Positions 3,979 through 41,239 of a stretch of DNA of 64,000 nucleotides are shown piece by piece. The notes beneath the pieces were generated by a model. It had not been told where the DNA came from, did not search any database, and was given only the letters and a program-made list of their open reading frames with translations. The stretch is from positions 32,551-96,550 of IMG/VR virus record IMGVR_UViG_3300026521_000088. One strand, 5' to 3'. How positions within the stretch are numbered: position 1 is the first letter of the stretch; the number at the start of each line of letters is the position of its first letter. This stretch comes from a virus (Duplodnaviria > Heunggongvirae > Uroviricota > Caudoviricetes). The translations under genes and the position numbers were made by a program.

Positions 3979-3990
3979 AATTTTCCTTTA

Positions 3991-4476
3991 TTATTTAAAT
4001 ACACCAAATTTTAAAGCTTTAGCCATATCATTTGGTGATGTTTTACAAGGTATAAGATTTCTAAATTCTGGTATATACAATTGAAGTTCTTTAGTACATA
4101 CTTCACTACAAAAACTTTTAGTTTTATCTTCATGTATATTTTTAAATACAAACCCTAATAAACCTAAATAATCATACTTTTCTTTTTTCAATACTCTCTG
4201 TTCGCACCTAGCTCTAATAGTATCTTCATCTTGTTTAGATATATTTAATTTTAATCTATCCCAAGCTGTACCTGTAAAGCTATGTTTTTTAAATCTTACT
4301 TTATTTTCATAAGAACTAGCACTAAACATCATACCATCTGAGAAAACTATTTCTACATGACTATATGTATATTTCCATTTACCATTTAATTTATAAGACA
4401 ATGGAGAAGTCCACCATCTTACAAATTTACCATAAATACTTCCATAGTTGTTACCATAAAATGCTAAATACATCAT
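3991..4476 (-). CDS. permuted papain-fold peptidase (NlpC/P60 superfamily, YiiX/C92-like); putative peptidoglycan peptidase
   Basis: YSHVEIVFSDG ... KSFCSEVCTKEL matches the YiiX-type arrangement (SHVG-IY His motif preceding a C-S-E-[LV]-V catalytic Cys motif). Confidence 0.5.
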   Translation of the reverse strand: MMYLAFYGNNYGSIYGKFVRWWTSPLSYKLNGKWKYTYSHVEIVFSDGMMFSASSYENKVRFKKHSFTGTAWDRLKLNISKQDEDTIRARCEQRVLKKEKYDYLGLLGFVFKNIHEDKTKSFCSEVCTKELQLYIPEFRNLIPCKTSPNDMAKALKFGVFK

Positions 4477-4835
4477 AAAAAAGAACCTATTTTAAAAGGT
4501 CTAAAGTTATATACTTCTCTACCTTTACTATCTATATGTTTTATAGGTTTATCATAAGGATATACAGATTTATACTTATTTAACTTACTTTTATGTTTTT
4601 TTAGTCTTATGGTATAATATGTACCTAAATCTTTTAACATTTTATATTTTTTTAAATCTAATTTTAATACTCTTGCTAAAGTTAGTGATTTATTACCATT
4701 TTTTTTGATAGGTGTTAATATACATCCTGTACAAAAAGATTTGGTTTCTTCATTATAGTGACCATCTTTTATTAATTGTTTTTTTAAGGCTTTTAAATCA
4801 GAACAATATATTATTCTATCATTGTATTTTTTCAT
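4473..4835 (-). CDS. hypothetical basic protein
   Basis: 120-aa ORF, Lys-rich, overlaps neighbours by 4 nt in an operon-like array. Confidence 0.4.
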   Translation of the reverse strand: MKKYNDRIIYCSDLKALKKQLIKDGHYNEETKSFCTGCILTPIKKNGNKSLTLARVLKLDLKKYKMLKDLGTYYTIRLKKHKSKLNKYKSVYPYDKPIKHIDSKGREVYNFRPFKIGSFL

Positions 4836-11497: not shown

Positions 11498-14488
11498 TTA
11501 CTCACTATAACTATCATAAGCTGTAGACTCTGTATCATCATCTATAATACCCCAGATATACTCATTCATAGGACTATTTCTTTTAGCTTTTTTAACTGCT
11601 TCAGCATTTTCAAATTCTTTAGCAGGATATATAATATCTATCATATTTATTTGAGAAATTAAATCTAATCCATCATCATGTTTAGAACCTATACTTGTAT
11701 ATGATGTATACTTAATCTCTTCCATAAGTTCTCTCATATCTGGAGTATCTTTTAAAGCTTCATTAAACCATATCTTTCTATTTTGAAATAATGGTAACAT
11801 TTGTCTAAATCTCCAATGTTTATTACCACCTTCAAGTCTACTCCTAATACCTTCAGAACCTATCTTAGCTCCTTTTTGTCTAGCAAAACTAAAGAATGTA
11901 TTTCTATCTACCATCATTTGTTTTAAAGAGTATATATGAATATTTTGTTGTCCATCTACTTCAACACCTACATCTACCCATCTAGCATTACCAAATACAC
12001 TTTCAACCATTTTAAAAGTTGTTCTATATTGTTCTTCTAACTCCATTTTCTTTAATGTTAAATCTACTAAAAATATATCACCACTACTAGCTACTGCCCA
12101 TAATGCTGCACCACTAAAATCACTACCTTTACTACCTGTACTTGTATAATCTGTAGTTAAATACCAATTGTATTGACTAGCTCTAGCTTTTATTTTAGCT
12201 GTGTCTATAAATTGTATTAAAGACTCTGGTACTAACCTATCTTCTTCATTACTAATTCTTAGCATTAATTCTTGATTAAATTCCCTTATAGAATTAGTCC
12301 CTAAAGCATCTTCATATCTTTCTTTAACTCTTTCGTAAGAATGCATAGGTTCCCAAGCTCCTACAAACTCTTTCTTAGTTATATTGTCATCTATCTTTTC
12401 ACACATAGGTATACAAACTGGTGTCCAAGTACCAGATTCTAATGCTTGGTATACTGGATCATTTTTATTAAATGGTGTATTAATTGCTATAATTTTACCT
12501 TTCTTACCACCTAAAGCATTTTCAGCATCAGCATACATCATAGACTTAAGTTTTTTCATAATAATTTTAGAATTAGCATCAGCCTCATTCTTAATAATAT
12601 CATCAAAAATAATACAGTTTTTAGATATACCAAATAGTGTACTATAAGCATGGTTTTCCCCAATTACTTTTTCAATATCCCTATTATTACACTGTATAGG
12701 TATTAAGTCTAGGTCTTTTGTTTCCTCTACACTTTTTACTTGTCTCCATAACATACCATTCTCTATATGTACTTGTTTAAACTTTACCTTTGTACTGGCC
12801 GATACATCAATATTCAGTATTTGCTTTACATTTTCTACCAATCTTAGTTCCCATTGATGGTTAATATTGTGTTCTTTGTTAGTTGAATTAAATACTTGTA
12901 CACCACTTCTTTTTGTATTGCGTATATAAGTAGGTAGTCCTAAACGACTAGAAATGACTTGTAGTTGTTTTAATACATTTAAATTAACACTATTTATCCT
13001 TACCTGTTGACTAACTTTCTTATTATCTATATATCCATCAGCAGCTATGTAACCAAGTAATAAATTTTTTTGCTTATTTAAGGTTATACGCATTACCCAA
13101 TCTGGCATATTTTTAATACTATTTCCACTTTTTTGGGACTTCAACCAATTTGACATGTCTGTATCGGATGTAACAATATTATAACAACCTGAACCAAACC
13201 TCTGGATACTATACTTTTTACCAAGACTATCTAGTATACTACATACTTTTTTACCAATAGTTTTCTCTTGGGTATTTGCTATAGTGTAAATTATATTACT
13301 ATTAGATATAGTCCCATCACCTAACCACAAACCATAAAGCCACCACCAATCATCGTTATCAAACTCAGTAAACTGAATCTTTTCTAACTTACTTATTTTC
13401 CTAGTTTTAAGAATCCTACCTTTAGAATCTCTAGCTATGATTTCATCATAGTATTTAACACATTCTACCAATGGAGGGTTGATTTCAGTATAATCAATCA
13501 TTGACCCAATCCAATGTCTATTTGTTAACTTGCTAGCTTCTTCCCAGCAAGCTTCATATTCAATATAATTTTTTACTAATTTTTTACTAGTTCTACACCA
13601 TACTTGGTCATTGGTACACTTTTTAGCCCAGTATTTGTGGTCTTTGCTAACAAATTCTGATTCTGTCAAACCTCTTACTTTAATTTCATACCCATTTTCA
13701 ATAAACCCTTCAGCCTTGATGGGGTGTTCTTCTATAGGATATGTACCGTACTCTGTTGTAACAATAGTCCCTCTTACATGACATTGAGGTCTTTCTGTTT
13801 TATATCTAATACCCCTTACAGAACCTCCAGCAGCACCTTTAACTTTATACATAAATGACCTAGATTTTATAGACTTATTTTCACCAGGTAGTTGCTTTCT
13901 TAAGAACTCACATTCTTCATCTGTAAATCTCATTTTTTCAAAATATTCTTTACAAAATAATGAATCCTCACATATATCTCTAATAGTATTAGCTTGAACT
14001 TTAGCTCCAGCTTGTTGTGAATCACCAAACCCTACTACAAACATAACATCACCAAAATTAGGCATCTTACCTTTTATTGCCAAGTATATAGGTAAAAATG
14101 CTGTAATAACTGTACTTTTAGCTAAACCTCTAGAACACATAATAGCTATTTTTCTATTATTAATTCTAATACTATCTTGAATTTCTTTTGAATATGGGTA
14201 TTGATGTCTTTTAATATTACCAAATACTAAGTCTACTAAAAAGTAATGCATCAAAGAGTTTTCCACTTCAAAGTCTTGTCCTTGTACTAATCGCATTAAA
14301 CTAAAAAATTCTATAGCATCTCTGCTAGGTAAATACCCACCAAATTTTAAATCCATATTATTTAGTGCTTCATCAATATTAAATTTATATTTTTTATTAG
14401 GTACTAACTGCACATCAGGCAAATCTTCTATATCGTTAGCGTTTTCTAAATACTCTTCCCACTCTTTACTTATTTTTTTATTACTCAC
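11498..14488 (-). CDS. terL: terminase large subunit interrupted by an in-frame intein with LAGLIDADG homing endonuclease
   Basis: N-extein has terminase Walker A-like MCSRGLAKST; the sequence resumes as CIIFDDIIKNE (Walker B hhhhDD) after a 389-aa insert beginning with Cys (RPQ|CHVRGTIV...) and ending ...ISKN|C; insert carries two LAGLIDADG motifs (WLYGLWLGDGTIS and LLLGYIAADGYID). C-terminal part is nuclease-domain sized. Confidence 0.85.
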   Translation of the reverse strand: MSNKKISKEWEEYLENANDIEDLPDVQLVPNKKYKFNIDEALNNMDLKFGGYLPSRDAIEFFSLMRLVQGQDFEVENSLMHYFLVDLVFGNIKRHQYPYSKEIQDSIRINNRKIAIMCSRGLAKSTVITAFLPIYLAIKGKMPNFGDVMFVVGFGDSQQAGAKVQANTIRDICEDSLFCKEYFEKMRFTDEECEFLRKQLPGENKSIKSRSFMYKVKGAAGGSVRGIRYKTERPQCHVRGTIVTTEYGTYPIEEHPIKAEGFIENGYEIKVRGLTESEFVSKDHKYWAKKCTNDQVWCRTSKKLVKNYIEYEACWEEASKLTNRHWIGSMIDYTEINPPLVECVKYYDEIIARDSKGRILKTRKISKLEKIQFTEFDNDDWWWLYGLWLGDGTISNSNIIYTIANTQEKTIGKKVCSILDSLGKKYSIQRFGSGCYNIVTSDTDMSNWLKSQKSGNSIKNMPDWVMRITLNKQKNLLLGYIAADGYIDNKKVSQQVRINSVNLNVLKQLQVISSRLGLPTYIRNTKRSGVQVFNSTNKEHNINHQWELRLVENVKQILNIDVSASTKVKFKQVHIENGMLWRQVKSVEETKDLDLIPIQCNNRDIEKVIGENHAYSTLFGISKNCIIFDDIIKNEADANSKIIMKKLKSMMYADAENALGGKKGKIIAINTPFNKNDPVYQALESGTWTPVCIPMCEKIDDNITKKEFVGAWEPMHSYERVKERYEDALGTNSIREFNQELMLRISNEEDRLVPESLIQFIDTAKIKARASQYNWYLTTDYTSTGSKGSDFSGAALWAVASSGDIFLVDLTLKKMELEEQYRTTFKMVESVFGNARWVDVGVEVDGQQNIHIYSLKQMMVDRNTFFSFARQKGAKIGSEGIRSRLEGGNKHWRFRQMLPLFQNRKIWFNEALKDTPDMRELMEEIKYTSYTSIGSKHDDGLDLISQINMIDIIYPAKEFENAEAVKKAKRNSPMNEYIWGIIDDDTESTAYDSYSE
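12617..13783 (-). mobile_element. intein (aa 236-624 of TerL) with double-motif LAGLIDADG homing endonuclease domain
   Basis: Boundaries inferred from Cys1 (C236) and C-extein Cys (C625) flanking ...SKN; LAGLIDADG blocks present; insertion immediately upstream of terminase Walker B. Confidence 0.7.
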
Positions 14489-21194: not shown

Positions 21195-22745
21195 GATTTT
21201 AATGAACTAACTTTTTAAGAAGCCAAGTAATAACTAAAGTATCTTTTATAAGGTATTTTAGTTATTTTTTTTTTTTAAATTAATAAACATAGTGGATAGT
21301 ATTTATTAAGATATTAGATATTTATTACTTTTTATTATAAGAAAAAACTTATTGATAAAGAGAGTAAGTAAAATAGATACTAAATAAAAAGGATATGTAA
21401 TAATACAACTGACAAAAAAACTATCAAATACATTACTTGTAGAAAGTTTGTGTGGAGATGGTAATAATATAACTTTACTATGGGTTAAACCTGCTAACTT
21501 ATTTACTACACCACACGATGAACTATTAAATATTAATAGTATGTTATTATTAAATTTAGAAGCATTAATATATAATAAATAAAAGGATATATATGATTCA
21601 ATTAATGAAATTTCAAAATAAAGATTCAAATAATGCAATTAGTAGGAGTAATATAGGCTACTGTAATTATATAACTTCATTGTGGTTTATGGTTATTCTT
21701 CCAGATATTAAATCTATTAATGCTTCTAAAAGAATGTTAGTACATCTAGATGGGTTAATAATGGATAATATAAATGAAAAGGTATATATATATGACACAA
21801 ATACTAAAGACTAAAGGTGGAACAAGTACAAGAATTCAAATTACTAGAACAACTACACCTATATGTGTAACATCATTATGGTATGCATCTCAAACTTTAT
21901 TTAGTAAAAATAGGTTTGATGGTAACATTAGACTACTGATAGATTTAGAAAGATTAGTAATAAAAACTTATAAAGGTGTACTTAATGATTCAATTATTAG
22001 AAAGATATAAAAATGTATCTTATGGGTTAGTTTCATATAATAGATATTTTTCAAGAGTATCTATTATTATAACAAAATTTTCTAGATTTAATGCTAATAA
22101 TACTCTTATAGTATGTTTAAATGATATAGATGTATATGCTAATTTAAAGGATAAAAATGATTAACTTAATTAGATATAACAGTGGGGTTATAGCATACGG
22201 TAATTATTACGATAAACATATAACTTTTTTATGTATAGTCGGTATATGGGAAATAAGTATAAATAAAAATTTGTTAAAAAATTTAGATGAACTAATGCTA
22301 ATAAAATAAGGATTTCTATGTTACAAATAATGAAGATAAAAAATAATGTAAGATTAAATTGGTTAGGTTATAGCTTATATTGTATAACAGATTTACCATA
22401 TTTATCAAATATACAGTTAATTAACACACCTTATGGTAGTAATAATAGGGGTTTATCAACACTTATTAATATGTATACTTTTAAAACATGTAAGGATTAA
22501 AAAATTATGACTCAAGTACTTAAAAGACATGTTACAGATTATAAGTTACATTATTCTAGTATTTTCATAGTAAATAATCATATTTTATCAAAATACTGGT
22601 TTTTCTTAACTGATTGTAGAAAAATAAATCAAAATATATTAGTTAAGTTAGGTTGTAGCAATATAAAAATTTAAGGATATATTAGAAAATCTATTAATAT
22701 TTAGATTTGCTAAATAAATAAGATATATAAAATAAAGGAATTAAA

Positions 22746-23667: not shown

Positions 23668-24258
23668 ATGAAGAAAATGACAACATTATTTAAAAAAACA
23701 GATGATCAGTCTAAAGTTATTGATGAACTTAGAGAAGAGAATAGATGGGTTTTAGAAAATTCTACAGCATATAGAAAATGGGATGGTACAGCTTGTGCTA
23801 TTATTAATGGAAAATTATATAAAAGATATGATGCTAAAATCAATAAAAAAACAGGTAAAAGAAAAATACCACCAGCTAATTCTATTGCTTGTCAAGAACC
23901 AGATGAAATAACAGGGCATCAACCATATTGGACTCCAGTATTAGATGAAAATAAAAGTGATAAGAGAATGTTAGATGCATTTAATAAAATTGTAGATACA
24001 AAAATTTTAAGTAAATACCCTTCAAAGTATGATGGAACTTACGAGTTTTGTGGACCTAAAGTAAATGGTAATCCAGAACAATTAAAAGAACATGTACTTA
24101 TACCACATAAAGAAGAAAAACTAGATATAGTTGATTATAGTTTTGCAGGGTTAAAACAATACTTAACAGATATTAATATTGAAGGTATTGTATTTTGGAA
24201 TAAAAATAATGATAAAAAATGTAAGATTAGAAAAACAGATTTTAATATTAAAAGATAG
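23668..24258 (+). CDS. small covalent nucleotidyltransferase (ATP-dependent RNA/DNA ligase-like, KxDG)
   Basis: Motif I RKWDGTACAI (KxDG), motif IV-like EGIVFW, motif V-like KCKIRK; 196 aa, so a minimal ligase-like domain. Confidence 0.5.
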   Translation: MKKMTTLFKKTDDQSKVIDELREENRWVLENSTAYRKWDGTACAIINGKLYKRYDAKINKKTGKRKIPPANSIACQEPDEITGHQPYWTPVLDENKSDKRMLDAFNKIVDTKILSKYPSKYDGTYEFCGPKVNGNPEQLKEHVLIPHKEEKLDIVDYSFAGLKQYLTDINIEGIVFWNKNNDKKCKIRKTDFNIKR

Positions 24259-24539: not shown

Positions 24540-24749
24540 ATGAAAATATATCAGTATATATTATATCCATATGAAGAATATGATGATGAATTGGGAGAAT
24601 GGGTCACAAACCACGACAATCCAAATAACTGGATAACAGAAGAAAGATTACTACAAGACAATGATGTAAAAAGTATTGAAGAAGTAGACTTGTCAATGTA
24701 CAATGTACAAGAAATAAGCAACAAGGAATATAATGATACAATTAAGTAA
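24540..24749 (+). CDS. small highly acidic protein
   Basis: 69 aa, strongly Asp/Glu/Tyr rich. Confidence 0.45.
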   Translation: MKIYQYILYPYEEYDDELGEWVTNHDNPNNWITEERLLQDNDVKSIEEVDLSMYNVQEISNKEYNDTIK

Positions 24750-24927
24750 AATACCTGAACCTTTTAAGTCTAAATTAGAAGCTACTTTAGGTAATAAGGA
24801 TTACTGTATAATGGAGAGTAGTTATATTTTCCGTTATGAAGATATTAGCACAGATTTTGGTAAATGGCTTATCTCAAAAGGTGAAGAAGAATTTGCTGGT
24901 GAGATTGAGTATAAATTAACAATTTAA
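24733..24927 (+). CDS. small protein, MIQ-start family member
   Basis: Starts ATGATACAA (MIQ) like the paralog clusters; overlaps upstream ORF. Confidence 0.4.
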   Translation: MIQLSKIPEPFKSKLEATLGNKDYCIMESSYIFRYEDISTDFGKWLISKGEEEFAGEIEYKLTI

Positions 24928-25933: not shown

Positions 25934-26019
25934 GCTGCTATGGTGGAAAGGTAGACACTGAAGGCTTAAAACCTTCTGACTGAAAAGTCGTCCCAGTTCG
26001 AATCTGGGTAGCAGTACCA
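25934..26019 (+). tRNA. tRNA-Leu (anticodon TAA), type II with long variable arm, CCA encoded
   Basis: Acceptor GCTGCTA/TAGCAGT, anticodon arm GAAGG-CTTAAAA-CCTTC, variable stem-loop, T arm CCCAG-TTCGAAT-CTGGG, then ACCA. Confidence 0.8.
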
Positions 26020-26021
26020 AA

Positions 26022-26095
26022 TCTCCAATAGCTTGAAGGTCAAGCAAATGACTGTTAATCATTAGTTGTAGGTTCGATTCCTACTTGGAGAGCCA
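26022..26095 (+). tRNA. tRNA-Asn (anticodon GTT), CCA encoded
   Basis: Acceptor TCTCCAA/TTGGAGA, D arm GCTT-GAAGGTC-AAGC, anticodon arm AATGA-CTGTTAA-TCATT, T arm GTAGG-TTCGATT-CCTAC, then GCCA. Confidence 0.8.
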
Positions 26096-26240: not shown

Positions 26241-26667
26241 CCTCCTACAAATAAGTAGTAAAGTTTATAGTAGAAAATTTTTAACATACCTATTTCCTTT
26301 TAAAGTATGTATTTTCATTTTCCTTCCCTTTTTAAATTTTAACTGACAAACTATAATTCTACTATAAACCTACTACTTATTATTTTTAATAAACCAATAT
26401 TTATATTGATTTATTAAAAATAATAATATACATATATACAAGGATTTACTATGTTACAAGTACTTAATCATAAGTATACATTTGCAAGAACAACTACTAA
26501 AGGATATTATGTAAAATATTATATATTTTCTTTTATACATTTTAGAAAACAACTACATCTACTACATATACGCAATTATAATAGTATAAAAACATTAGAT
26601 GAGACTCTATTATCTTTAATATAGACTATAAAATATTATAAATAATTATAATAAATAAAGGAAAATA

Positions 26668-26850
26668 ATGATACAGATAATTGAAAGTACTAAAATACAT
26701 ACTGATACTCTTAGTAGGTTAGACACTAGTCATATTGTGAAAAACATAGTTGATTTTTATATTAGACAAATGCCATATAACAATAATGGAATTATACTAT
26801 TACAACTTACTGCATTAATAGTAGAGGTTACAGATGATACAGAATGTTAA
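26668..26850 (+). CDS. small protein, MIQ paralog family
   Basis: AAATAAAGGAAAATA-ATGATACAG start; ~60 aa; shares MIQ...DFY...LL pattern with neighbours. Confidence 0.5.
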   Translation: MIQIIESTKIHTDTLSRLDTSHIVKNIVDFYIRQMPYNNNGIILLQLTALIVEVTDDTEC

Positions 26851-27031
26851 TACAATATATTCTAAAATGTATGATCCTAGAAACAAGTATAAATTACATT
26901 ATAGTCAGGATACTGAGGATTTTTTTATTAATTGGTACTTATCTTCACAACTTTTAGATAGTAATAGTAGTATTTTATATAAACTAACAGAATATCTACT
27001 AGACTATACACAACAAAATAAAGGAAAATAA
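26834..27031 (+). CDS. small protein, MIQ paralog family
   Basis: MIQNVN... with ...TEDFFINWYL core; overlaps neighbours. Confidence 0.5.
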   Translation: MIQNVNTIYSKMYDPRNKYKLHYSQDTEDFFINWYLSSQLLDSNSSILYKLTEYLLDYTQQNKGK

Positions 27032-27219
27032 TGATACAAAATATAGCTGCTAATACTAAACTTATTCATAAATTTATATCTAAACCACATATTATAAAAA
27101 GTACCTCTGATAATGATTTTTATATACCCAATCTATTATCTGGTACACATACAAGAATACTAGCAGGTATTGTTATGTTAGTAATAAAGGGTGCTGATGT
27201 TGCAAAATATAAGACATAA
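27031..27219 (+). CDS. small protein, MIQ paralog family
   Basis: AAATAAAGGAAAATA-ATGATACAA start; ...NDFYIPNLL core. Confidence 0.5.
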   Translation: MIQNIAANTKLIHKFISKPHIIKSTSDNDFYIPNLLSGTHTRILAGIVMLVIKGADVAKYKT

Positions 27220-27388
27220 TATTAGTAAGAACTTAATAGGTGTAAGATTAGTACTTGATCAAGATAAAAATATTTATATTACTAAAAATATTTTTTATAC
27301 TCAAGTATATATAAAAAATAAAATAAGTAAAGTATGTACTAAACTTTTGAGAAATACAGTCTACCTACTTTATAAAAATACTAAATAA
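27191..27388 (+). CDS. small basic protein
   Basis: 65-aa ORF in the same tight array. Confidence 0.35.
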   Translation: MLMLQNIRHNISKNLIGVRLVLDQDKNIYITKNIFYTQVYIKNKISKVCTKLLRNTVYLLYKNTK

Positions 27389-27406: not shown

Positions 27407-28633
27407 ATGAAAAATGTACTAGATTTAATAAAAGAAGATATGATTTCACCAAAATATAAAAATGCTGATGATGTAATGGATATGGTTATTACTCAAGAGA
27501 CAGATACACTGTTAAATCCAGCATATAATAAAGAGTATAGTAAATTCTTAGATACTCTTAAAGAAGACTTTAAAAAAGACATTAAATTGAACTTTAGTGA
27601 GTCATATGGTCTAGATACACCATTAGAGTTTATAGGAACAGGTGGTGTAGGAGCAAACCTATTATATATGTTAGAACACCATAGAAATTTCACTGAAGAT
27701 AATAATGGTGAAAAATTCTATATACCAAACTCATTCTTTGAATTTGACCATTGGGACTTTAGCAATTTAGCTAGAATACCATTTATACCAGAAAAATATC
27801 GTAAAGGTGAAGATATTGTAGCTAAAGAACTTGCTAACCATGATGCTAAAGAAGAGCAATTTCTAGACCCATTATTTATTGAGGCTAGCCATAATAAGCT
27901 ATCGAAAATAATTCCTTGTGGAGCTATGGATTTAGAAACTAGAAAAGTAATGACTACTGCTAAAATACCATACATCACAGTTACACACAAAGATGATAAG
28001 CTACAAATTAAATTATGTCCTACACCTGTAGAACATGAGTCTTTAATGGCTGAAACATATGGTATGATTGATGTAAACTTCTTGTTACCAGCAGTACATC
28101 TAGCTTCATTCTATATCTCAGATATTATGAATGCTGCAAATACTGATAAAACAGAAGGTTACAATATATCTGCAGTTAAAGCTTATGAGGATATTAAAGT
28201 CTTCAAAGCTGAAATGTTGAAGTATAGAGAGTTAACTATAGCTAATGAAGCTAATAGTAACAATGATATTTTACAAAGTTTTATCTTGTATTGTGCAGAT
28301 ATTGTAAAAGATAGAACTAACTATAATTTAGAAGATACAGATGAGTTACAAAAATTTAGAGTAGAAATTTACACTGAAGTAACTAGAAGACTTTCTAATG
28401 CTGAAGACTTAGAAGCAATGGTCAATAGTTCAAAAGAATCATTTAATCATCTAGGTGGTAAAGAGTATGTATGTACAAGAGCCAAAGAATTGCTAGATCT
28501 AGACACCTTATGGAGTGGTATGGAAGATAGAGTATTACTAGAAATTACACCAGATGATGTAAGAGACTTTCTAGAAGTCAAAAATACAAAGGAAGCTTAT
28601 GAACTTGTTAGAAGACTTTCATCCAATAATTAA
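27407..28633 (+). CDS. E1-like adenylyltransferase (ThiF/MoeB/HesA family)
   Basis: Rossmann nucleotide-binding motif LEFIGTGGVGANLLYML followed by FEFDHWDFSNLARI (cf. ThiF/MoeB VLVVGAGGLGS ... LIDFDVVELSNLNRQ). Confidence 0.7.
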   Translation: MKNVLDLIKEDMISPKYKNADDVMDMVITQETDTLLNPAYNKEYSKFLDTLKEDFKKDIKLNFSESYGLDTPLEFIGTGGVGANLLYMLEHHRNFTEDNNGEKFYIPNSFFEFDHWDFSNLARIPFIPEKYRKGEDIVAKELANHDAKEEQFLDPLFIEASHNKLSKIIPCGAMDLETRKVMTTAKIPYITVTHKDDKLQIKLCPTPVEHESLMAETYGMIDVNFLLPAVHLASFYISDIMNAANTDKTEGYNISAVKAYEDIKVFKAEMLKYRELTIANEANSNNDILQSFILYCADIVKDRTNYNLEDTDELQKFRVEIYTEVTRRLSNAEDLEAMVNSSKESFNHLGGKEYVCTRAKELLDLDTLWSGMEDRVLLEITPDDVRDFLEVKNTKEAYELVRRLSSNN

Positions 28634-29222
28634 AGAATTAGTAGTATATAAAGATATTACTAAATTCTTTAAAAAAACTAGAGAGATTAGAATAAATTAC
28701 ATAACTGCTATATGTGATAATATAGCAGTACCTATTTATTACTATTCAGAGGAACAATGGGGTTCTAGAGCTTATATTGATTATACTATGAAACTGGATA
28801 CAATTAGAGATTTAGATAAATCTATTATAGATTGTAAAATAAAAGAGTTGCAAGAGTTAGGGTTAAATATAACAAGTATTTCATTAACAGATAATCTACA
28901 CACTCATCCAGTAGGTTGTACTAGTTTTTCACCTACAGATTATAATGGTTGTTTAAAACCTGACTATACAGAGAATAGCTTAGGTACTAATATGTTATTT
29001 TCATTTACTGGAGAGCTTTATAAAACTATTGTGAGAGAACAAATAAATGGTGAGTATAAGTATTATAAAGTTAAACAAATAGAAGTAGATGACTTTATAC
29101 CACATATAGATATTAAAGAGGAGCATTTTAAAACTAAAGCATTAACATACCTTACTGTAAATTTAATGAAACAAAAGATAAAGAAAAAACTACATAAATC
29201 AAAAATTAAGCATAAAAGATAA
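28599..29222 (+). CDS. JAB/JAMM (MPN+) metalloprotease-fold protein
   Basis: Exact JAMM motif H-x-H-x(7)-S-x(2)-D: HTHPVGCTSFSPTD, with an upstream Glu (SEEQW); overlaps the E1-like gene by 35 nt. Confidence 0.7.
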   Translation: MNLLEDFHPIIKELVVYKDITKFFKKTREIRINYITAICDNIAVPIYYYSEEQWGSRAYIDYTMKLDTIRDLDKSIIDCKIKELQELGLNITSISLTDNLHTHPVGCTSFSPTDYNGCLKPDYTENSLGTNMLFSFTGELYKTIVREQINGEYKYYKVKQIEVDDFIPHIDIKEEHFKTKALTYLTVNLMKQKIKKKLHKSKIKHKR

Positions 29223-29302: not shown

Positions 29303-29851
29303 ATGGCAACATTAAGAGAGAGAGCAGAAGCAAAACTAAGAGAGCAAAACAAAATGGATACAACTACAACAGAAGAGGTAACAAAATTGTTTGAACAAGC
29401 TCAAGAGAGCGTTGTAAGTACTGCACAGGAAGTAAAAAAATCAGATAGTGGAGCAGATATGTCTATAGCCCAAAATGAAGTAGAGGCTATTTATGATGGT
29501 AAAGATACAGTTGAATACCCTAAAGGTATTACAGATGTGCTAAATGATGAAGATGTTAAACCAACTATAGCTATAAAAGCTATCAAAGCTTATGTAAAAG
29601 CTACTAGAAAAGCTTATAGTAAGGATAAAGTACAAGTAAAAGGTTTTAGTTTTAAAACTAGTGCATCTGAGAAGATTATGGCTATTGCTGATGAGGTAGA
29701 TAGAATCAATGAAAAACTAGAAGATTTTGACCAAAGCAATAGAGAAGTAGGTTCAAAAATCTATAACTTAGAAAAAGAAGCAGAAAGACTTGTAGCTACA
29801 AGTGCAGTATTACTTGGTCTATTGGTAAAATCTAGTAATAAATTAATCTAG
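29303..29851 (+). CDS. hypothetical coiled-coil protein with hydrophobic C-terminus
   Basis: 182 aa, no Cys; A12 tract immediately upstream (29274-29285). Confidence 0.5.
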   Translation: MATLRERAEAKLREQNKMDTTTTEEVTKLFEQAQESVVSTAQEVKKSDSGADMSIAQNEVEAIYDGKDTVEYPKGITDVLNDEDVKPTIAIKAIKAYVKATRKAYSKDKVQVKGFSFKTSASEKIMAIADEVDRINEKLEDFDQSNREVGSKIYNLEKEAERLVATSAVLLGLLVKSSNKLI

Positions 29852-29884: not shown

Positions 29885-31003
29885 ATGGTATTAACAATTA
29901 AAATAAAGGGGTTAAAAATGACAAGAAATAAACAGAACGAAGCATTTATTAGAAAAGTGTTACTAGCTAAAGCTATTGAAAAAGTTGTAAAACAAGTTGA
30001 TTTTGATACAGATGTTAATGTAGAGCATTTCTCTGAAACCTACGGTATTTATGTATCTAAATTTGATAGAGATTATGTAAAATCTTTAATTGATAAAAAA
30101 GAAAATTTATCTCAAATTAAAGATATGAAAGTTACAGGTTACGATGTACAAGGATTGATTGGTCTAGCTAATTTATTAGATACTATGTCAGATAATCCTG
30201 ATTTTTATGGTTGTATTGTTCTTATTGAAAAAGCTAATCAAAAAATTCCATATAACCCATTGTCTGAGTCTTTTATGAAAAAACTAACATCTGGTGTTAT
30301 TAAAATCAATGATGATACAAAACTAAAAGTTTTTATTTATTCTATCAACGGTGAAGTAGATAACGATGTAGCTTTACAAACTGTAGATATGTTATCTAAA
30401 ATTTCTGTAATTAATGCAGAGACTGTTCAAATTGAAAAACCAGATGATGAAGAAGAGGTTAAAACTTTATGGTTAAAAGCACCTGTAGCTTGGGATACTA
30501 ACAACAGCCAGAACTCGGTTGTTAATAATGGTACATTAGAAGACATTCACTTAGATCAATTACATAAATCTATTACATTTACTGCTTCAAATAGAATTGA
30601 TTATAAAGATTTGTTAGCTTATGATATTGATATGCTATTAAACAGTGAAATTGAAGACAATTCTAATTCCATTATTAAGAGAATGTTAGATAACAATTGG
30701 ATGATTGAATTATCTGTTATTGATATTGGTGGTATGATTGTACCAGCATATGGTTTTTTTGAACATAAAGATAATGCTATGTATGATATTTTATGTGCTA
30801 CAAGACACCCAAATATTTCAAATGACGGGTCTAACTACTGTACTGGTGCTAACGGAAGAACTACCCTGAAGGGTATTTCAGAATTAAGTTATGGTAACCT
30901 AACATCACCACTCAATAGTAACATTTGGTCAAAAAATAGCTTATCTATAGCTAAAGGGTTTGTAGCTTATTATACTGAGAAATTTTTAAATCTAGAAGTA
31001 TAA
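29885..31003 (+). CDS. hypothetical protein
   Basis: 372-aa ORF, no recognisable motif. Confidence 0.5.
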   Translation: MVLTIKIKGLKMTRNKQNEAFIRKVLLAKAIEKVVKQVDFDTDVNVEHFSETYGIYVSKFDRDYVKSLIDKKENLSQIKDMKVTGYDVQGLIGLANLLDTMSDNPDFYGCIVLIEKANQKIPYNPLSESFMKKLTSGVIKINDDTKLKVFIYSINGEVDNDVALQTVDMLSKISVINAETVQIEKPDDEEEVKTLWLKAPVAWDTNNSQNSVVNNGTLEDIHLDQLHKSITFTASNRIDYKDLLAYDIDMLLNSEIEDNSNSIIKRMLDNNWMIELSVIDIGGMIVPAYGFFEHKDNAMYDILCATRHPNISNDGSNYCTGANGRTTLKGISELSYGNLTSPLNSNIWSKNSLSIAKGFVAYYTEKFLNLEV

Positions 31004-31012
31004 AGGTAACTT

Positions 31013-31258
31013 ATGATAACAACACAATATTTGTATGATTGTAACCCAGAGGATTTTAAAGATTTACCTTATAAGGATGCTATAAAATATAAGTATAACC
31101 AAGCTAAGATGCTTGGTTATAGACTATACAAAGAGTTGATACTTAAAAATGATAACACTAAAGAGAGTTATTTAAATAATACTGAACTAAGAAAAAGATT
31201 GTATATGGTAAATAAAGCTGAAAAACATAATAGAATCCTACTGGATGAATTAAATTAA
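31013..31258 (+). CDS. hypothetical small protein
   Basis: 81-aa ORF. Confidence 0.45.
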   Translation: MITTQYLYDCNPEDFKDLPYKDAIKYKYNQAKMLGYRLYKELILKNDNTKESYLNNTELRKRLYMVNKAEKHNRILLDELN

Positions 31259-31267
31259 AGAATTAGA

Positions 31268-31477
31268 ATGAAATATAATAAAGTAAGTATTATAACCGAG
31301 ATAGCAGTAGTATGTATGTACCTTGTGATAATAATTGGTATAGGTTATGGGTATATTAATAATATTATCCAAAAAGTACATTCAGAACTTGAGCCATTAA
31401 CGACTCAAGTTGTTATAGGTATAGGTGGAATATTTGTACCACCTATTGGTGTTCTTATGGGGCTTTTTGTCTGGTAA
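31268..31477 (+). CDS. small 2-TM membrane protein (possible partner of the SPFH protein)
   Basis: 69 aa, two hydrophobic helices. Confidence 0.45.
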   Translation: MKYNKVSIITEIAVVCMYLVIIIGIGYGYINNIIQKVHSELEPLTTQVVIGIGGIFVPPIGVLMGLFVW

Positions 31478-31519: not shown

Positions 31520-32488
31520 ATGGAAATTTTTAAGAAAAATGAATATGAGCAAGTTATAGGTGTAAATACAAAATTCATTATTGGTAGTATAGTAAGTATT
31601 ATTGTAATTGTTGCAGCACTATTAAGTTTTTATACTATAAATAGTGGGTATGTAGGTGTACTATCTACAATGGGTAAATACCATAAAAATGAAATAAACC
31701 CTGGACTTAACTTTAAGATACCTTATATGCAAAGTGTAACAGTGTTTAATACTAAAGCGCATGTGGTGAATTATAAAGGTTCAAAAGATCTACCTGATAC
31801 TGAAGACATTATCAATAAACCTTATATTGTGGTTCTTGATAAGAACAATCAAAATATTGTGATTGAGTTATCAGTACAGTATCAACCAGTTGCATCTGAA
31901 GCATCTGAGATTCTTACACAATATGGTAAAACATACTTTTATAAAGCTATTAACCCTATCGTAAGAGAGGTTGTAAGAGATGTAATTGGAAAATATGAAG
32001 CAGAAACTATTGCTTTAAATAGAACAGCTATAGCTACAAAACTTAAAGATACACTTATCAATAGATATAAAAATAATCATCAATTCTCTATCTTAGAAGT
32101 ATCTCTAAGAAACATTAGATTACCTAAACTTATTAAAGATAAGATTAATCAAGTACAAGTAGCTGCACAAGAAGAGCAAAGGTTAGCTAGAGTTGCTAAA
32201 CAAGCTCAAAGACATCAAGAGATTAAGACTATTGAAGCTAATACAAGAATGATTGAAATTACTACTAAAGCTAAAGCTCAAGCAGAAAAGAAAAAGATTG
32301 AAGCAGATGCTAAAGCTTATCAAATTCTAACAGAAGCTAATGCTAAATCAAAAGCTAACGAAGAGATTGCTAAATCTATAACACCAACATTGATTCAATA
32401 TAATCAAATTAACAAATGGTCTGGTATATATCCATCTACATATATGGGTAGTGGTATGAATAATGATGTAATTTTAAATATGAAATAA
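31520..32488 (+). CDS. SPFH/band-7 (stomatin/prohibitin/HflKC-like) membrane protein
   Basis: N-terminal TM, then SGYVGVLSTMGKY...PGLNFKIPYMQSVTVFNTKAH (canonical SPFH start) and a long coiled-coil QEEQRLARVAKQAQRHQEIKTIEA... tail. Confidence 0.75.
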   Translation: MEIFKKNEYEQVIGVNTKFIIGSIVSIIVIVAALLSFYTINSGYVGVLSTMGKYHKNEINPGLNFKIPYMQSVTVFNTKAHVVNYKGSKDLPDTEDIINKPYIVVLDKNNQNIVIELSVQYQPVASEASEILTQYGKTYFYKAINPIVREVVRDVIGKYEAETIALNRTAIATKLKDTLINRYKNNHQFSILEVSLRNIRLPKLIKDKINQVQVAAQEEQRLARVAKQAQRHQEIKTIEANTRMIEITTKAKAQAEKKKIEADAKAYQILTEANAKSKANEEIAKSITPTLIQYNQINKWSGIYPSTYMGSGMNNDVILNMK

Positions 32489-32948
32489 ATAGGACTTCAG
32501 TCCTATATATTTTTTAAAGTATTATATATAAATATTTTTAAAAATATACAGGAGTTAGGTAATGGTGCAGGTAGTAAAGAAATATAAGAAAGATTGTTAT
32601 ATTTTGGATTATTCAAATTTATGTATGTCTACAGATAGTTTAGATGTAAACCTATGTTTACTGTATGAGATAGATGAGTTAACATATATACCATAATATA
32701 ATATAAGTTATAAATATTTTATACTAATGTAATGACTTATTATTAAAAACAATATAAATCTAGATAAGAGGGGTATAAATGATACAATTAGTTAATATGT
32801 ATTATACAGAAATAGAAGGTAGTCCTAAAATAAAAGTACATAAATGGAATTACTTATATGCTGGTTCATCATCATTAAATAACAGTATTAATACAGAGTT
32901 GTTATATAGGATAAATTACTTAAAACTACATACATAAAGGTAAGCATT

Positions 32949-33161
32949 ATGATTCAACTAATAAATTTAACAACAGAAGATTTAACTTGTGATGATTTTA
33001 CATATAAAGCTTATATAGATAAACTACATAGGTCTTTAATACATACAAAGTATAAAGATTTTTATACTAATGCTCCATTACTAACACTAAACAATAATAT
33101 ACATTATGAAATTTTATATTTATTTTGTGCTAAATTAACAAATTCTATAGAAAAGTATTAA
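32949..33161 (+). CDS. small protein, MIQ paralog family
   Basis: MIQLINL...KDFYTNAPLL; a further unlisted member (MIQLVNMYY..., ~52 aa) starts at 32779. Confidence 0.45.
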   Translation: MIQLINLTTEDLTCDDFTYKAYIDKLHRSLIHTKYKDFYTNAPLLTLNNNIHYEILYLFCAKLTNSIEKY

Positions 33162-33257
33162 AAATGGTAACATTTATAGCTAATGTAAATAAATTAGGTA
33201 TATAAATACTAATGCATATATACTATATAGTATGTTTTTTAAATACAAAGGAAAATT

Positions 33258-33443
33258 ATGGTAAATAATATAAAACTAAGTACTAATAAATCATATGTAC
33301 ATTTATATTCGGTTAAAAAAAGACTAATAATATATTTACCAAAATTTACCTTATCTGGTATAAATAGGGTAATTTTATTAGAGATAGGTGTATTATTTAA
33401 TAACTTAGAGGGTACAAATGATACAAGTAATAAAATTATATAG
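33258..33443 (+). CDS. small hypothetical protein
   Basis: 61-aa ORF with AAAGGAAAAT SD. Confidence 0.35.
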   Translation: MVNNIKLSTNKSYVHLYSVKKRLIIYLPKFTLSGINRVILLEIGVLFNNLEGTNDTSNKII

Positions 33444-33593
33444 AAATATTGATAAAAAAGAAATAGATATAGGCTTTAATACTTATATTGGTATACTATC
33501 TTATGTTATATTCCCTATATCAACAAATACAAATATAATAAATTATAACTTATTAACAGATAAGTTTATTTATTATACTTATAAAGGTAATTT

Positions 33594-33785
33594 ATGATTC
33601 AACAAACATATCATATTAATAAGTCATATTCATCAAAACTTGTTAAATATAGTTATTATAGTTATTATAATAATAATATAAACATATCTTATTATATTTA
33701 TAAAGAAGTAATTAAAACAGAGTGTAATATAAATGATAATATCCTATTTTTTATAGGTATGTTACTTCGTAAAGTTACACATTAA
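33594..33785 (+). CDS. small protein, MIQ-start, Tyr/Asn-rich
   Basis: MIQQTY...; low complexity, so uncertain. Confidence 0.3.
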   Translation: MIQQTYHINKSYSSKLVKYSYYSYYNNNINISYYIYKEVIKTECNINDNILFFIGMLLRKVTH

Positions 33786-39201: not shown

Positions 39202-39803
39202 AAACAATTAAAATATTAAGTAAAGAGCCGCTTGCAAAACCAAAGTTTCTTAAAACAGAACTTGTAACTTACCAAAAAGATAATGAAAAACCAAGACAAT
39301 GGGAAGTTTTACAAGGATTTGATACAGTACACATTCTCATTAAAAATACTGATACAAACAAGTTCTTGTTAGTCAAGCAAAACAGAATACCTGTAGCTGT
39401 CAAAAATACTAATCAAGGTATTTGTATAGAATGTTGTGCAGGGATTATTGATAAATACCAACATTCAAAATCATCTTTATATCAAGCTAAATTAGTAGCT
39501 AGAGATGAGATACTTGAAGAATTAGGTTATCATAAAGAAAATTTAAAGGATATTGAATTAGTAGACACATTACTAAGTTCAGTAGGCACTGTTGGTTCTA
39601 AACAATACTTGTTCTATTGTGAAGTTAACGATTCTGAATATACAGGACAACATTTAGAACCAGATGAAGAAATTGAAGTTATTGAATATACAAGTAATGA
39701 TTTAATGGATTTAATATTTAAAGAGTATAATACAGACTCGGTGACTAAATATTTATGTTTAAATCATATTGGAGAAATATATAACATAAAGGATAATTTA
39801 TGA
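39186..39803 (+). CDS. Nudix hydrolase (ADP-ribose pyrophosphatase-like; NatV C-terminal-domain equivalent)
   Basis: Nudix box-like ...LVARDEILEELGYH...; overlaps the NMNAT gene by 16 nt and the NadV gene by 4 nt. Confidence 0.6.
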   Translation: MEVMVKTIKILSKEPLAKPKFLKTELVTYQKDNEKPRQWEVLQGFDTVHILIKNTDTNKFLLVKQNRIPVAVKNTNQGICIECCAGIIDKYQHSKSSLYQAKLVARDEILEELGYHKENLKDIELVDTLLSSVGTVGSKQYLFYCEVNDSEYTGQHLEPDEEIEVIEYTSNDLMDLIFKEYNTDSVTKYLCLNHIGEIYNIKDNL

Positions 39804-41239
39804 GTAAACTATTAGAATCAACATTAATAACAGGAGATAGTTATAAATATGGGCATCCATTTCTATTAAGAGATGATATAGCTTATCAATATAACTATAT
39901 GGAAGCAAGAAAAGGCGATGATATAATATTTGTAGGTATGCAATATTATATTAAAAAGTTTCTAACAAAAGTACCATCAAAGAAACAAATTAAAAAAGTT
40001 AAAAAGATGGCATTAAAGCATGGAATTTATTTTGATGAAAAGATGTGGAAATACATCAATAAATTAGGATATTATCCAATTAGAATTAAAGCAATACCAG
40101 AAGGAACAAAAGTACCATCAGGTGTACCATTAGTTACTTTTGAAAATACAGATCCAGAATGTGTAGGATTAGTAGGTTTTCTTGAAACTCTGTTTATGAA
40201 AGTATGGATGCCAACATCGGTTGCTACGCAAAGCTATGAAGTTAAACAGATGTTATTAAAGTATGGTTCACCTGAATGGGCTGAATATGCTTATCACAAT
40301 TTTGGTTCTAGAAGCACAACATCATTAGAACACGATATGATTGCTGGATACGCACACCTAACACAATTTAAAGGAACTGACAGCTTTTCTTCACTATTCT
40401 TTTGCGAAAAATACTATAATCAAGGGAAAGAACCAGCAGGATATTCAGTATTAGCAACAGAGCACTCTGTTACTACAATGAATGGTATAGAAAACGAAGA
40501 AGAGTTTGTATATAAAACATTATTAAATAATCAAAATAGTCAAATTATCTCATTTGTTGGAGATTCTTATGATATTTATAAATTTACAGATTTTGTAACA
40601 AATCCAAACGGTAGAATAAGAAAATTACTAAACAAAAGAAAAAACCAAAAACTTGTAATTAGACCAGATAGTGGAGAACCAATTAAAGTACTTAAAGGTG
40701 TTATTGATATAATGAAAAACAATGATTGTTTTAATTCTGGAATAGAAGGTAAACTATTGTCGCCTAAATACGGAATTCTTTGGGGTGATGGTATAACACA
40801 AAAAATAATTGAACACATTCTACAATACTTCACTAATGAATCTTATAGACAATTCATGATAAATAGTAGTACAGACATACTAGCAACTAAAATTAAAAAT
40901 TTACAATTACTAGCAGCAGAAAACTTTGTATTTGGTTCTGGGACAGACTTAGTTAATTCAAAAGATAGAGATACTTATGGATTTGCTATTAAATGTTCAT
41001 CAGTTACACTTAAAGATGGTACAGAGCTAGATGTATTCAAAAATCCTATAACTGCACCTACTAAAAAATCGAAAAGAGGTAGAGTAGAAACAGCATTTAA
41101 CACAGCAAAGAAAACATATAGAACAACTAAAGGTGGGTATAAAGATATAGAAACGAAAGCGTTACAGTTAATATTTGAAGATGGTAAGTTATATAATGAA
41201 ACTTCCCTAGAAAACATTAGAAGTAACAGTTTAAAATAA
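39800..41239 (+). CDS. nadV: nicotinamide phosphoribosyltransferase (NAMPT/NadV)
   Basis: N-terminal TGDSYKYGH (NAMPT DSYK motif), 479 aa, typical NAMPT length and composition. Confidence 0.75.
   Translation: MSKLLESTLITGDSYKYGHPFLLRDDIAYQYNYMEARKGDDIIFVGMQYYIKKFLTKVPSKKQIKKVKKMALKHGIYFDEKMWKYINKLGYYPIRIKAIPEGTKVPSGVPLVTFENTDPECVGLVGFLETLFMKVWMPTSVATQSYEVKQMLLKYGSPEWAEYAYHNFGSRSTTSLEHDMIAGYAHLTQFKGTDSFSSLFFCEKYYNQGKEPAGYSVLATEHSVTTMNGIENEEEFVYKTLLNNQNSQIISFVGDSYDIYKFTDFVTNPNGRIRKLLNKRKNQKLVIRPDSGEPIKVLKGVIDIMKNNDCFNSGIEGKLLSPKYGILWGDGITQKIIEHILQYFTNESYRQFMINSSTDILATKIKNLQLLAAENFVFGSGTDLVNSKDRDTYGFAIKCSSVTLKDGTELDVFKNPITAPTKKSKRGRVETAFNTAKKTYRTTKGGYKDIETKALQLIFEDGKLYNETSLENIRSNSLK

Follow-up and report, generated by a model that had tools for sequence, protein, structure and literature searches.

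Here, we describe a set of four neighbouring genes on a 64,000-nucleotide stretch of DNA from an uncultured tailed phage (IMG/VR virus record IMGVR_UViG_3300026521_000088, positions 32,551 to 96,550 of that record; hereafter the window), two of which encode an E1-like adenylyltransferase and a JAB metallopeptidase. The four genes recur together in every related phage lineage whose flanking sequence could be seen, and we give roughly even chances to the reading that the E1-like and JAB proteins belong to a four-component phage system for covalent tagging, made up of a tag peptide, the E1-like enzyme, a cysteine-bearing carrier and the JAB protein. A more specific proposal, held tentatively, is that the genes encode a complete phage ubiquitin-style cascade (peptidase, E1 and Cys-carrier) whose modifier, probably unstructured, is a peptide of Pup-like size with a Ser-Gly end, and not a beta-grasp protein. 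The genes and their main features, in window positions, are as follows:

27407..28633, plus strand: predicted E1-like (ThiF/MoeB/UBA5 superfamily) adenylyltransferase, 408 residues
27635..27658, plus strand: E1 nucleotide-binding loop G77-T-G-G-V-G-A-N84 (GTGGVGAN)
27761..27775, plus strand: E1 S119-N-L-A-R123, the Arg-finger motif of E1 enzymes
27920..27943, plus strand: E1 G172-A-M-D-L-E-T-R179, in a region not covered by the alignment to the PDB
28052..28063, plus strand: E1 invariant motif E216-T-Y218-G219, just past the expected crossover-loop region
28599..29222, plus strand: predicted JAB/MPN+ (JAMM) zinc metallopeptidase, 207 residues, its start overlapping the E1 gene by 35 nucleotides
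28683-28685: candidate catalytic Glu, E29, upstream of the JAMM motif
28899..28940, plus strand: JAMM motif H101-T-H103-x7-S111-x2-D114
29303..29452, plus strand: candidate modifier (tag), residues 1-50 of a 182-residue open reading frame (ORF), ending ...KKSDS-G50
29453..29851, plus strand: helical/coiled-coil C-terminal domain fused behind the tag
29885..31003, plus strand: conserved partner p372, with an N-terminal domain and a C-terminal domain of ~135 residues (30596-31003)
30806..30847, plus strand: putative E2-like active-site signature of p372, H308-P-N310-I-S-N-D-G-S-N-Y-C319-T-G321
31013..31258, plus strand: 81-residue helical protein, present after p372 in the close family only

A preliminary description of this DNA, made by a model from its letters alone, had proposed the E1/JAB pair, and its two reading frames (27407-28633 and 28599-29222) are present on the plus strand with a 35-nucleotide overlap, each preceded by its own AAGGA-type ribosome-binding site. 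The strings that it quoted from the first protein were likewise located (GTGGVGAN at 27635-27658, and FEFDHWDFSNLAR, the SNLAR of which lies at 27761-27775). This protein consists of a conserved N-terminal extension (residues ~1-65, with Y17, N19, D25 and LNPAYN), an adenylation core (residues ~66-250) and a helical C-terminal extension (~250-408). The last had been put at ~250 residues and is here shortened to ~160, since distant family members align over residues ~55-250 only. An exhaustive profile search yielded 227 representative clusters (50% identity) of E1 relatives at E <= 0.001, and a word-indexed search yielded 4 relatives only. Among 65 family members, G77, G79, R123, G172, E216, Y218 and G219 are invariant, and conservation is at least 97% for G80 and N84, 98% for N120, at least 90% for K133, at least 91% for A173, T178 and R179, and 83% for D175; the G172-R179 stretch contains what we take to be the D-x-x-x-T-R Mg/ATP motif of ThiF/MoeB. 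Searched against the PDB, the 65-member profile matched UBA5 (E 1.2e-5) and, as a second family, MccB (E 4e-3), with the UBA5 alignment in register at GxGGxG, at DxDxxxxSNxxR and at the following Lys, so that the nucleotide loop pairs with GVGGVGS and SNLAR with ANMNR of UBA5. Because these motifs are invariant or nearly so in 65 members and stand in register with UBA5, they go beyond chance, and the assignment of the protein as E1-like is upheld.

Curated libraries reach this family through its relatives: Pfam ThiF (PF00899) matches 7/65 of them (best E 4.2e-5) and the PADLOC E1-E2 (Cap2) model 4/65. The window E1 on its own gave no match in Pfam, PHROGs, PADLOC and NCBIfam (curated thresholds) or in a phmmer search of the PDB, and no ThiF match at E <= 1 in Pfam or NCBIfam; its membership of the PF00899 superfamily, as read from sequence, is transitive, through the family profile. 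No cysteine is conserved in the family (the most Cys-rich column has 21/65, and C204 of the window protein is Thr in relative P0004), and the family lacks the catalytic Cys that thioester-type E1 enzymes have within or close to the crossover loop. We are highly confident that the protein is a genuine, very divergent, Cys-less E1-like enzyme with predicted adenylating activity. Two observations concern its C-terminal end, where L378, I380, D384, V385, F388, L389 and E396 are invariant among 4 sequences, and where residues 381-405 (28547-28621) show a weak excisionase-type helix-turn-helix match (NCBIfam E 0.0035, far under the cut-off).

The JAMM motif string HTHPVGCTSFSPTD is present at 28899-28940, and E29, H101, H103, S111 and D114 are invariant in 10 JAB homologues at 15-35% identity (15-50% when a first set of seven is counted), with x6 spacing in the JAMM motif of one distant homologue (L024). 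A good AlphaFold2 model has the JAB/MPN fold (predicted local distance difference test score (pLDDT) 80.8, predicted template-modelling score 0.77), and the JAB/JAMM assignment of the preliminary description stands on both counts. The window JAB has no match at curated threshold in Pfam, PHROGs, PADLOC or NCBIfam and no usable one in a phmmer search of the PDB, and the Prok-JAB family matches 3/10 relatives (E 0.013, under the cut-off). From its residues and model, the 207-residue protein is predicted to be an active JAMM metallopeptidase, and we are highly confident of its JAB assignment. In one distant lineage (L021), the JAB-like gene is split into two ORFs (3647-4057 and 4072-4803) and the break parts the JAMM motif exactly into its HRHP and SFSGTD halves, which could be due to a frameshift, assembly error or insertion. 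The closest viral structural matches in BFVD (A0A8S5Q0U4, A0A8S5QUA1 and A0A6J5NMZ4) are JAB-type proteins of 338-413 residues from crAss-like and other uncultured phages, which suggests that gut crAss-like viruses may harbour the module in its distant form, the one in which the JAB protein is long (L020 and L022).

Window proteins were compared by tblastn with the loci collected for relatives. In 13/13 independent phage lineages with visible flanks, E1 and JAB occur with both a tag peptide gene and a p372 homologue. Eight of these lineages are close (window/L008, L001/L002, L003, L004/L011, L005/L013, L006/L017, L007/L014, and L010 with L009 and L012) and vary in gene order (E1-JAB, JAB-E1, or p372 upstream of E1), which argues for a functional rather than a merely syntenic linkage. 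In the distant lineages L020-L024 (E1 identity ~20%), the order E1, p372-like, JAB-like is kept, with a 129-residue ORF between p372 and JAB in L023, and loci L020-L023 often adjoin DNA polymerase, helicase and PD-(D/E)XK genes. Locus L024, a 122-kb IMG/VR contig with E1 identity of ~22%, was fetched after the hypothesis had been set and contains all four parts, in the order E1, p372-like (GNISSEDHEVCFG), JAB-like (HKHPGRFGFSSTD) and a 54-residue ORF ending ...ASG-FVA, the N-terminus of which resembles the L020 tag. The preliminary description had seen no adjacent E2 or obvious ubiquitin-like protein (Ubl); this needs correction, as the products of 29303-29851 and 29885-31003 accompany E1 and JAB in every lineage examined. 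The 81-residue helical protein, matched by tblastn directly downstream of p372 in L001, L002, L009, L010, L012, L015 and L016, is possibly an accessory.

This gene content bears on the idea that the pair serves as a counter-defence device, with the JAB protein stripping conjugates of Ubls or of CD-NTases (nucleotidyltransferases that resemble cGAS and DncV) made by host Bil, Bub or type II cyclic-oligonucleotide-based antiphage signalling (CBASS) systems, the E1-like protein sequestering or mis-activating the host modifier, and the neighbouring genes being unrelated. In the 13 lineages, however, E1 and JAB are never found without a gene for a Gly-ended peptide and one for the Cys protein, and such obligate partners point to a self-contained system with its own substrate. 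In addition, the JAB model is no closer to Cap3 and BilC than to eukaryotic Rpn11 or CSN5, and the four window proteins are not matched by PADLOC CBASS models, the sole PADLOC match being a chance one to LmuB. We consider a counter-defence pair unlikely; a phage-intrinsic conjugation system, which the preliminary description had offered as the other option, appears a better fit to the gene content than a device that only reverses host conjugation.

The third gene (29303-29851, 182 residues, 'cc182') provides the candidate substrate. All cc182 homologues have a K-x-S-x-S-G motif ~50-70 residues from the N-terminus, at junctions that read KKSDSG|AD in the window, KKSTSG|AD in L001, KESGSG|AE in L010, NSGSG|AP in L018 and KSGSG|AG in L023, and across all aligned lineages the glycine (G50) is invariant (12/12) and the preceding S49 nearly so (11/12). 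The helical domain fused behind it occurs in the close family, L018 and L023, has weak coiled-coil-type Pfam matches only, would presumably be released by cleavage, and is absent where the tag stands alone. Six lineages have such a standalone tag, an ORF of 36-71 residues that stops 1-8 residues past the Gly and, in L005 and L019-L022, adjoins the E1 gene; the L005 ORF shows clear homology to the L001 and L010 proteins at their N-termini:

L005 tag: 71 residues, ending ...KQSGAG-SY
L019 tag: 38 residues, ending ...KSGSG-K
L020 tag: 50 residues, ending ...SDSG-DNSDRLDC
L021 tag: 64 residues, ending ...GGSG-K
L022 tag: 36 residues, ending ...SKSG-N
L024 tag: 54 residues, ending ...ASG-FVA

Behind the S-G come either 1-8 residues or an entire domain; precursors of ubiquitin-like proteins classically have such a Gly with a short tail or a fused domain after it. 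Among small ORFs of the non-redundant loci (ATG-initiated, 25-110 residues), 6/752 terminate 1-2 residues after a [SGK]x[SA]G motif; of these 6, 4 are E1-flanking tag ORFs, leaving a background of 2/748 in other small ORFs. From this pattern the Gly-ended peptide is probably a tag or modifier. The preliminary description had pointed to 29303-29851 as a place to look for a beta-grasp Ubl with a C-terminal Gly: a candidate modifier does lie there, in the form of an N-terminal 50-residue peptide with an internal S-G, and the beta-grasp and the terminal position of the Gly do not hold. The small ORFs upstream (26668-27388), named in the same place, are four 'MIQ...' ORFs without a Gly-type C-terminus; they are not conserved with the module and were rejected as Ubl candidates.

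The fourth gene encodes p372, the true start of which is likely ATG 29918, since a ribosome-binding site stands there and the start of the L008 homologue matches it. Across nine sequences, down to 15% identity, G109, N124, P287, Y289, N310, C319, G321, G330, L334, N338 and S341 are invariant, and the only invariant polar residues of the C-terminal domain are N310, C319, N338 and S341. Asn and Cys are the two catalytic residues of E2 enzymes, and in the UBE2D2 active site they occur as HPNINSNGSIC, to be compared with HPNISNDGSNYC in p372; thus a Cys preceded by an HPN-type Asn is found, in N310 and C319. Their spacing, ~7-9 residues in E2s, is 6-8 residues in the close family, L021 and L023 and 10 in L020, with a long insert in L022. 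The C-terminal domain has no invariant His, which speaks against a Cys-His protease. In hhalign comparisons with five eukaryotic E2s, HPN aligned on HPN and Cys on Cys through to both C-termini, with scores above 200/200 and 100/100 column-shuffled controls; after removal of the HPN-to-Cys segment, the score of the part after the Cys was matched by 1/100 shuffles. We use 'E2-like' for p372 as a mechanistic hypothesis and not as a family assignment, and judge the chance that it is an E2-like Cys carrier to fall a little short of even. A Bub-like Ubl-E2 fusion inside p372 was rejected, as the Gly before 'HLSDLH' is not conserved, and so was a CX5R loop of protein tyrosine phosphatase or rhodanese type at Cys319, the Arg of which is not conserved.

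On the proposed mechanism, the 182-residue product would be a precursor that the JAB protein cuts after Gly50 (...KKSDSG|ADMS...), freeing a 50-residue peptide with a C-terminal glycine, a step that would parallel the way in which QbsD, BilC and BubCD uncover the Gly of the respective modifier. The E1-like enzyme would bind ATP and adenylate the glycine carboxylate of the tag; because it has no conserved cysteine, it would act as an adenylating enzyme only, like ThiF, MoeB, MccB and BubCD. The activated peptide would then pass to Cys319 of p372 as a thioester, with Asn310 assisting catalysis as in E2s, the N-terminal domain of p372 would pick a host or phage target during infection, and an amine of that target would take the peptide. 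The JAB protein may also reverse the linkage.

Several results weigh against this reading. The peptide is no Ubl in the structural sense, since tags of 36, 38, 50, 54, 64 and 71 residues fall in some lineages under the beta-grasp size (~70 residues or more), and the shortest, reasoning from size, cannot form one; we know of no E1-type enzyme that conjugates such a peptide to proteins, and the S-G site could be a mere domain linker. The structure model of the E1-like protein is poor (pLDDT 59.5). For p372, the H308-P309 pair is lost in distant homologues, which read S-A, S-P or S-S there, no E2/UBC family was found in Pfam at E <= 10 with profiles of 7 and 9 members, and profile searches of the PDB returned no E2 and only chance haemagglutinin matches (E 0.1), leaving the protein with no usable Pfam or PDB profile match at all. 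The hhalign comparisons described above gave P values of 0.003-0.008 at a low probability of 5-10%, and no signal in the region before the HPN motif.

Of the systems described so far, Bub type I and Bil come closest. Bub type I (6E.1) operons encode BubAB (a Ubl-E2 fusion), BubCD (a JAB-E1 fusion) and BubE; the JAB domain of BubCD cuts BubAB after a Gly (G229), and its E1 domain, devoid of a catalytic Cys, carries an invariant Tyr in the crossover loop (PMC11601596). Similarly, the module described here has a Cys-less E1-like protein whose invariant Tyr lies close to the crossover region, a putative E2 partner that is small (~130 residues) and non-canonical, a JAB protein proposed to cut a fusion precursor after Gly, and no E3. 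It differs in having separate genes in place of the Ubl-E2 and JAB-E1 fusions and in the invariant Cys of p372 where the Bub type I E2 active site has Ser/His; no DUF6527 protease, a Bub feature, was found among the Pfam matches of module neighbours. BilABCD corresponds to '6d' of Iyer et al. 2006, and BilC trims the residues after the Gly of the modifier (PMC10557695); 6d operons were listed with an alpha-helical accessory protein (PMC1779556). A Ubl precursor with E1, E2 and JAB, maturation by JAB at a Gly and the lack of an E3 are shared, in the proposed form, with the present genes, whereas the two-domain E1 of BilD (inactive and active adenylation domains, IAD-AAD) with its mobile Cys domain, the CEHH motif of BilB and the beta-grasp BilA are missing here, and Bil is a bacterial anti-phage system where this module is phage-borne.

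Other systems are more remote. Type II CBASS combines Cap2 (an E2-E1 fusion) and Cap3 (JAB) with a CD-NTase and effector, neither of which is present here, and E1 and p372 are separate genes. Pup, with PafA and Dop, resembles the candidate tag in its small size (~40-70 residues), in probably not being a beta-grasp and in the maturation of its C-terminus before ligation; Pup ends GGQ/GGE and is ligated via a glutamate side chain by glutamine-synthetase-like enzymes, and no E1, E2 or JAB is known to take part. The only phage-borne Ubl and JAB association found in our literature search is that of TAPI (Ubl) and TAPK (JAB-NlpC/P60) in lambdoid/T1-like tail assembly (PMC1779556), which differs in being a tail module with a beta-grasp modifier and no E1, whereas the present genes are sited in the early/replication arm, with an E1-like enzyme among their products. 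Judged by the defining features of CBASS, Bil, Pup and MccB systems, the module belongs to none of them.

The likeness to MccB and MccA of microcin C7, where an N-terminally extended E1-like enzyme acts on a short ribosomal peptide, underlies an alternative in peptide natural-product or cofactor chemistry, which we regard as improbable. Here, the E1-like enzyme would adenylate a peptide C-terminus, as MccB does on MccA, or a small-molecule carboxylate, the latter kept as a thioester on p372 as in HcgE/HcgF; the product would be a modified peptide or nucleotide-peptide and the JAB protein a leader or follower peptidase. MccB is the second PDB family for the E1 profile, the E1-like protein has no catalytic Cys, its conserved N-terminal extension could be a peptide clamp, and the candidate substrate is a short, probably unstructured peptide. 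One of nine p372 homologues also has a weak Pfam HcgF match (E 0.032); in iron-guanylylpyridinol cofactor biosynthesis, the E1-like HcgE has HcgF as the partner that forms the thioester, and the functional analogy is apt though the match, single and sub-threshold, is probably chance. However, MccA, which is made into a peptidyl-nucleotide, ends in the Asn that MccB chemistry needs and is not known to have a JAB or Cys-carrier partner, whereas the conserved end here is S-G with a variable, removable tail; an MccA-like C-terminal Asn was rejected, being present in one lineage only (L022). Moreover, no exporter, immunity or tailoring genes are conserved beside the module, and most lineages carry the peptide as a fusion with a domain of 130-180 residues.

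Quite improbable, in our view, is a sulfur-carrier pathway, in which the Gly-ended peptide would pass through an adenylate to a thiocarboxylate with Cys319 of p372 as persulfide donor, the sulfur would go to nucleic-acid or cofactor modification, and the JAB protein would mature the carrier in the manner of Mec+ with CysO and of QbsD with QbsE. The combination of E1, JAB and a Gly-ended carrier is the architecture of CysO/Mec+ and QbsCDE (PMC1779556). The E1-like protein also lacks a Cys, as MoeB/ThiF-type enzymes often do, and the module stands beside replication genes in distant phages. Against this, no neighbour has a rhodanese, cysteine desulfurase or sulfurtransferase match, and no Arg or Lys is conserved six residues after Cys319; the carrier would be 36-71 residues long with an SG end, and all sulfur carriers known to us are beta-grasp proteins ending GG. 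That these are inactive enzymes or chance likenesses, for example proteins of scaffolding or structural function in which the E1-like and JAB-like folds have merely been retained, is very improbable: neither window protein reaches threshold with a curated profile and the E1 model is of low confidence, but in both enzymes the residues for ATP binding and catalysis are precisely those that stay invariant across 15-40% identity, and the genes lie in the early/replication arm and not the virion arm. A reading of 29303-29851 and 29885-31003 as scaffold and major capsid, with E1 and JAB as portal and protease, was rejected because virion genes lie on the other strand at 1-16.6 kb and the two proteins are of E1-like and JAB type.

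The phage setting assumed in the preliminary description is borne out by the rest of the window, which has a G+C content of ~26% and a strand switch near 16.6-17 kb. Genes for tail proteins and a large terminase lie in the minus-strand block (1-16.6 kb), and the plus-strand block has genes for RNA ligase, ATPases, nicotinamide phosphoribosyltransferase (NAMPT), helicases, exonuclease, DNA polymerase and primase, so that the E1 and JAB genes are sited in the early/auxiliary (replication) arm of an uncultured novel phage. Identity of the DNA polymerase to that of any GenBank phage is at most 28-30%, and the matches with most coverage are to the Alteromonas podophages AD45-P1 to P4 (~100 kb); the IMG/VR source record is 104 kb. 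Directly downstream of the module are two further genes:

31268-31477: 69-residue membrane protein
31520-32488: SPFH/Band-7 protein (Pfam E 1e-28), after the 69-residue membrane protein

The module also has an SPFH gene nearby in L001, in L010 (90% identical) and in the distant L024 (8422-9363), and none is present in the visible flanks of L020-L023; its presence may reflect shared synteny or a loose functional link. Many tandem 'MIQ...' ORFs of 55-70 residues are preceded, on both sides of the module, by the repeated start context AAAGGAAAATAATGATACAA (ribosome-binding site and Met-Ile-Gln; window 26652-26682, 27015-27045, 33242-33272, 24723-24751, 32771-32802 and 33410-33441). They form arrays at 26668-27388 and 32779-33785 and occur also at 22157-22674 and 24733, and comparable small-ORF arrays with ends '...FWNEYV' surround the module of L007. 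A DUF7566 protein (126-130 residues) is encoded near the E1-like gene in L019 (1531-1911, with the C-terminal end ...TTTTGGE) and L020 (12663-13055). Elsewhere in the window, the PHROG terminase match of the large terminase ORF (11498-14488, minus strand, 996 residues) spans residues 624-966 only, and the ~600 N-terminal residues left over may be an extra domain, a fusion or an intein. Genes for tRNA-Leu(TAA) and tRNA-Asn(GTT) (25934-26095) lie 1.7 kb downstream of the RNA ligase gene (23668-24258; phrog_14301, E 2e-57), which could be a tRNA-repair or tRNA-supply pairing. The NAMPT gene (39800-41239; phrog_448, E 1e-111) is of a type of NAD+ salvage gene that could aid the phage where host defences deplete NAD+.

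Among 50,697 GenBank phage records, neither megablast of the region nor tblastn with the window E1, two distant E1 relatives and p372 gave a match. A profile of the close E1 family only found no relative in 185,579 reference genomes, four single-protein IMG/VR scans found nothing, and a literature search of limited scope found no description of a phage-encoded E1-based conjugation system. Phages may encode their own, previously undescribed ubiquitin-style tagging system. Prokaryotic E1/E2/JAB systems have so far been known as bacterial anti-phage devices (type II CBASS, Bil and Bub) or sulfur-carrier pathways, and the proposed mechanism, if true, would be the first for phages and the first for a tag that is not a beta-grasp. 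It would mean that an E1/JAB pair is able to work with such a tag, and it would give a testable function to an E1-like family of 227 clusters that escapes direct recognition by curated libraries. Mutations at the Gly50 site, Asn310, Cys319 and the JAMM residues would allow direct tests, and a four-gene system would be small enough for reconstitution in vitro. The peptide would then add a third, independent kind to the protein tags of prokaryotes, one that an E1 activates and that marks host or viral proteins during infection, and ubiquitin-type chemistry would be found on both sides of the phage-host conflict.

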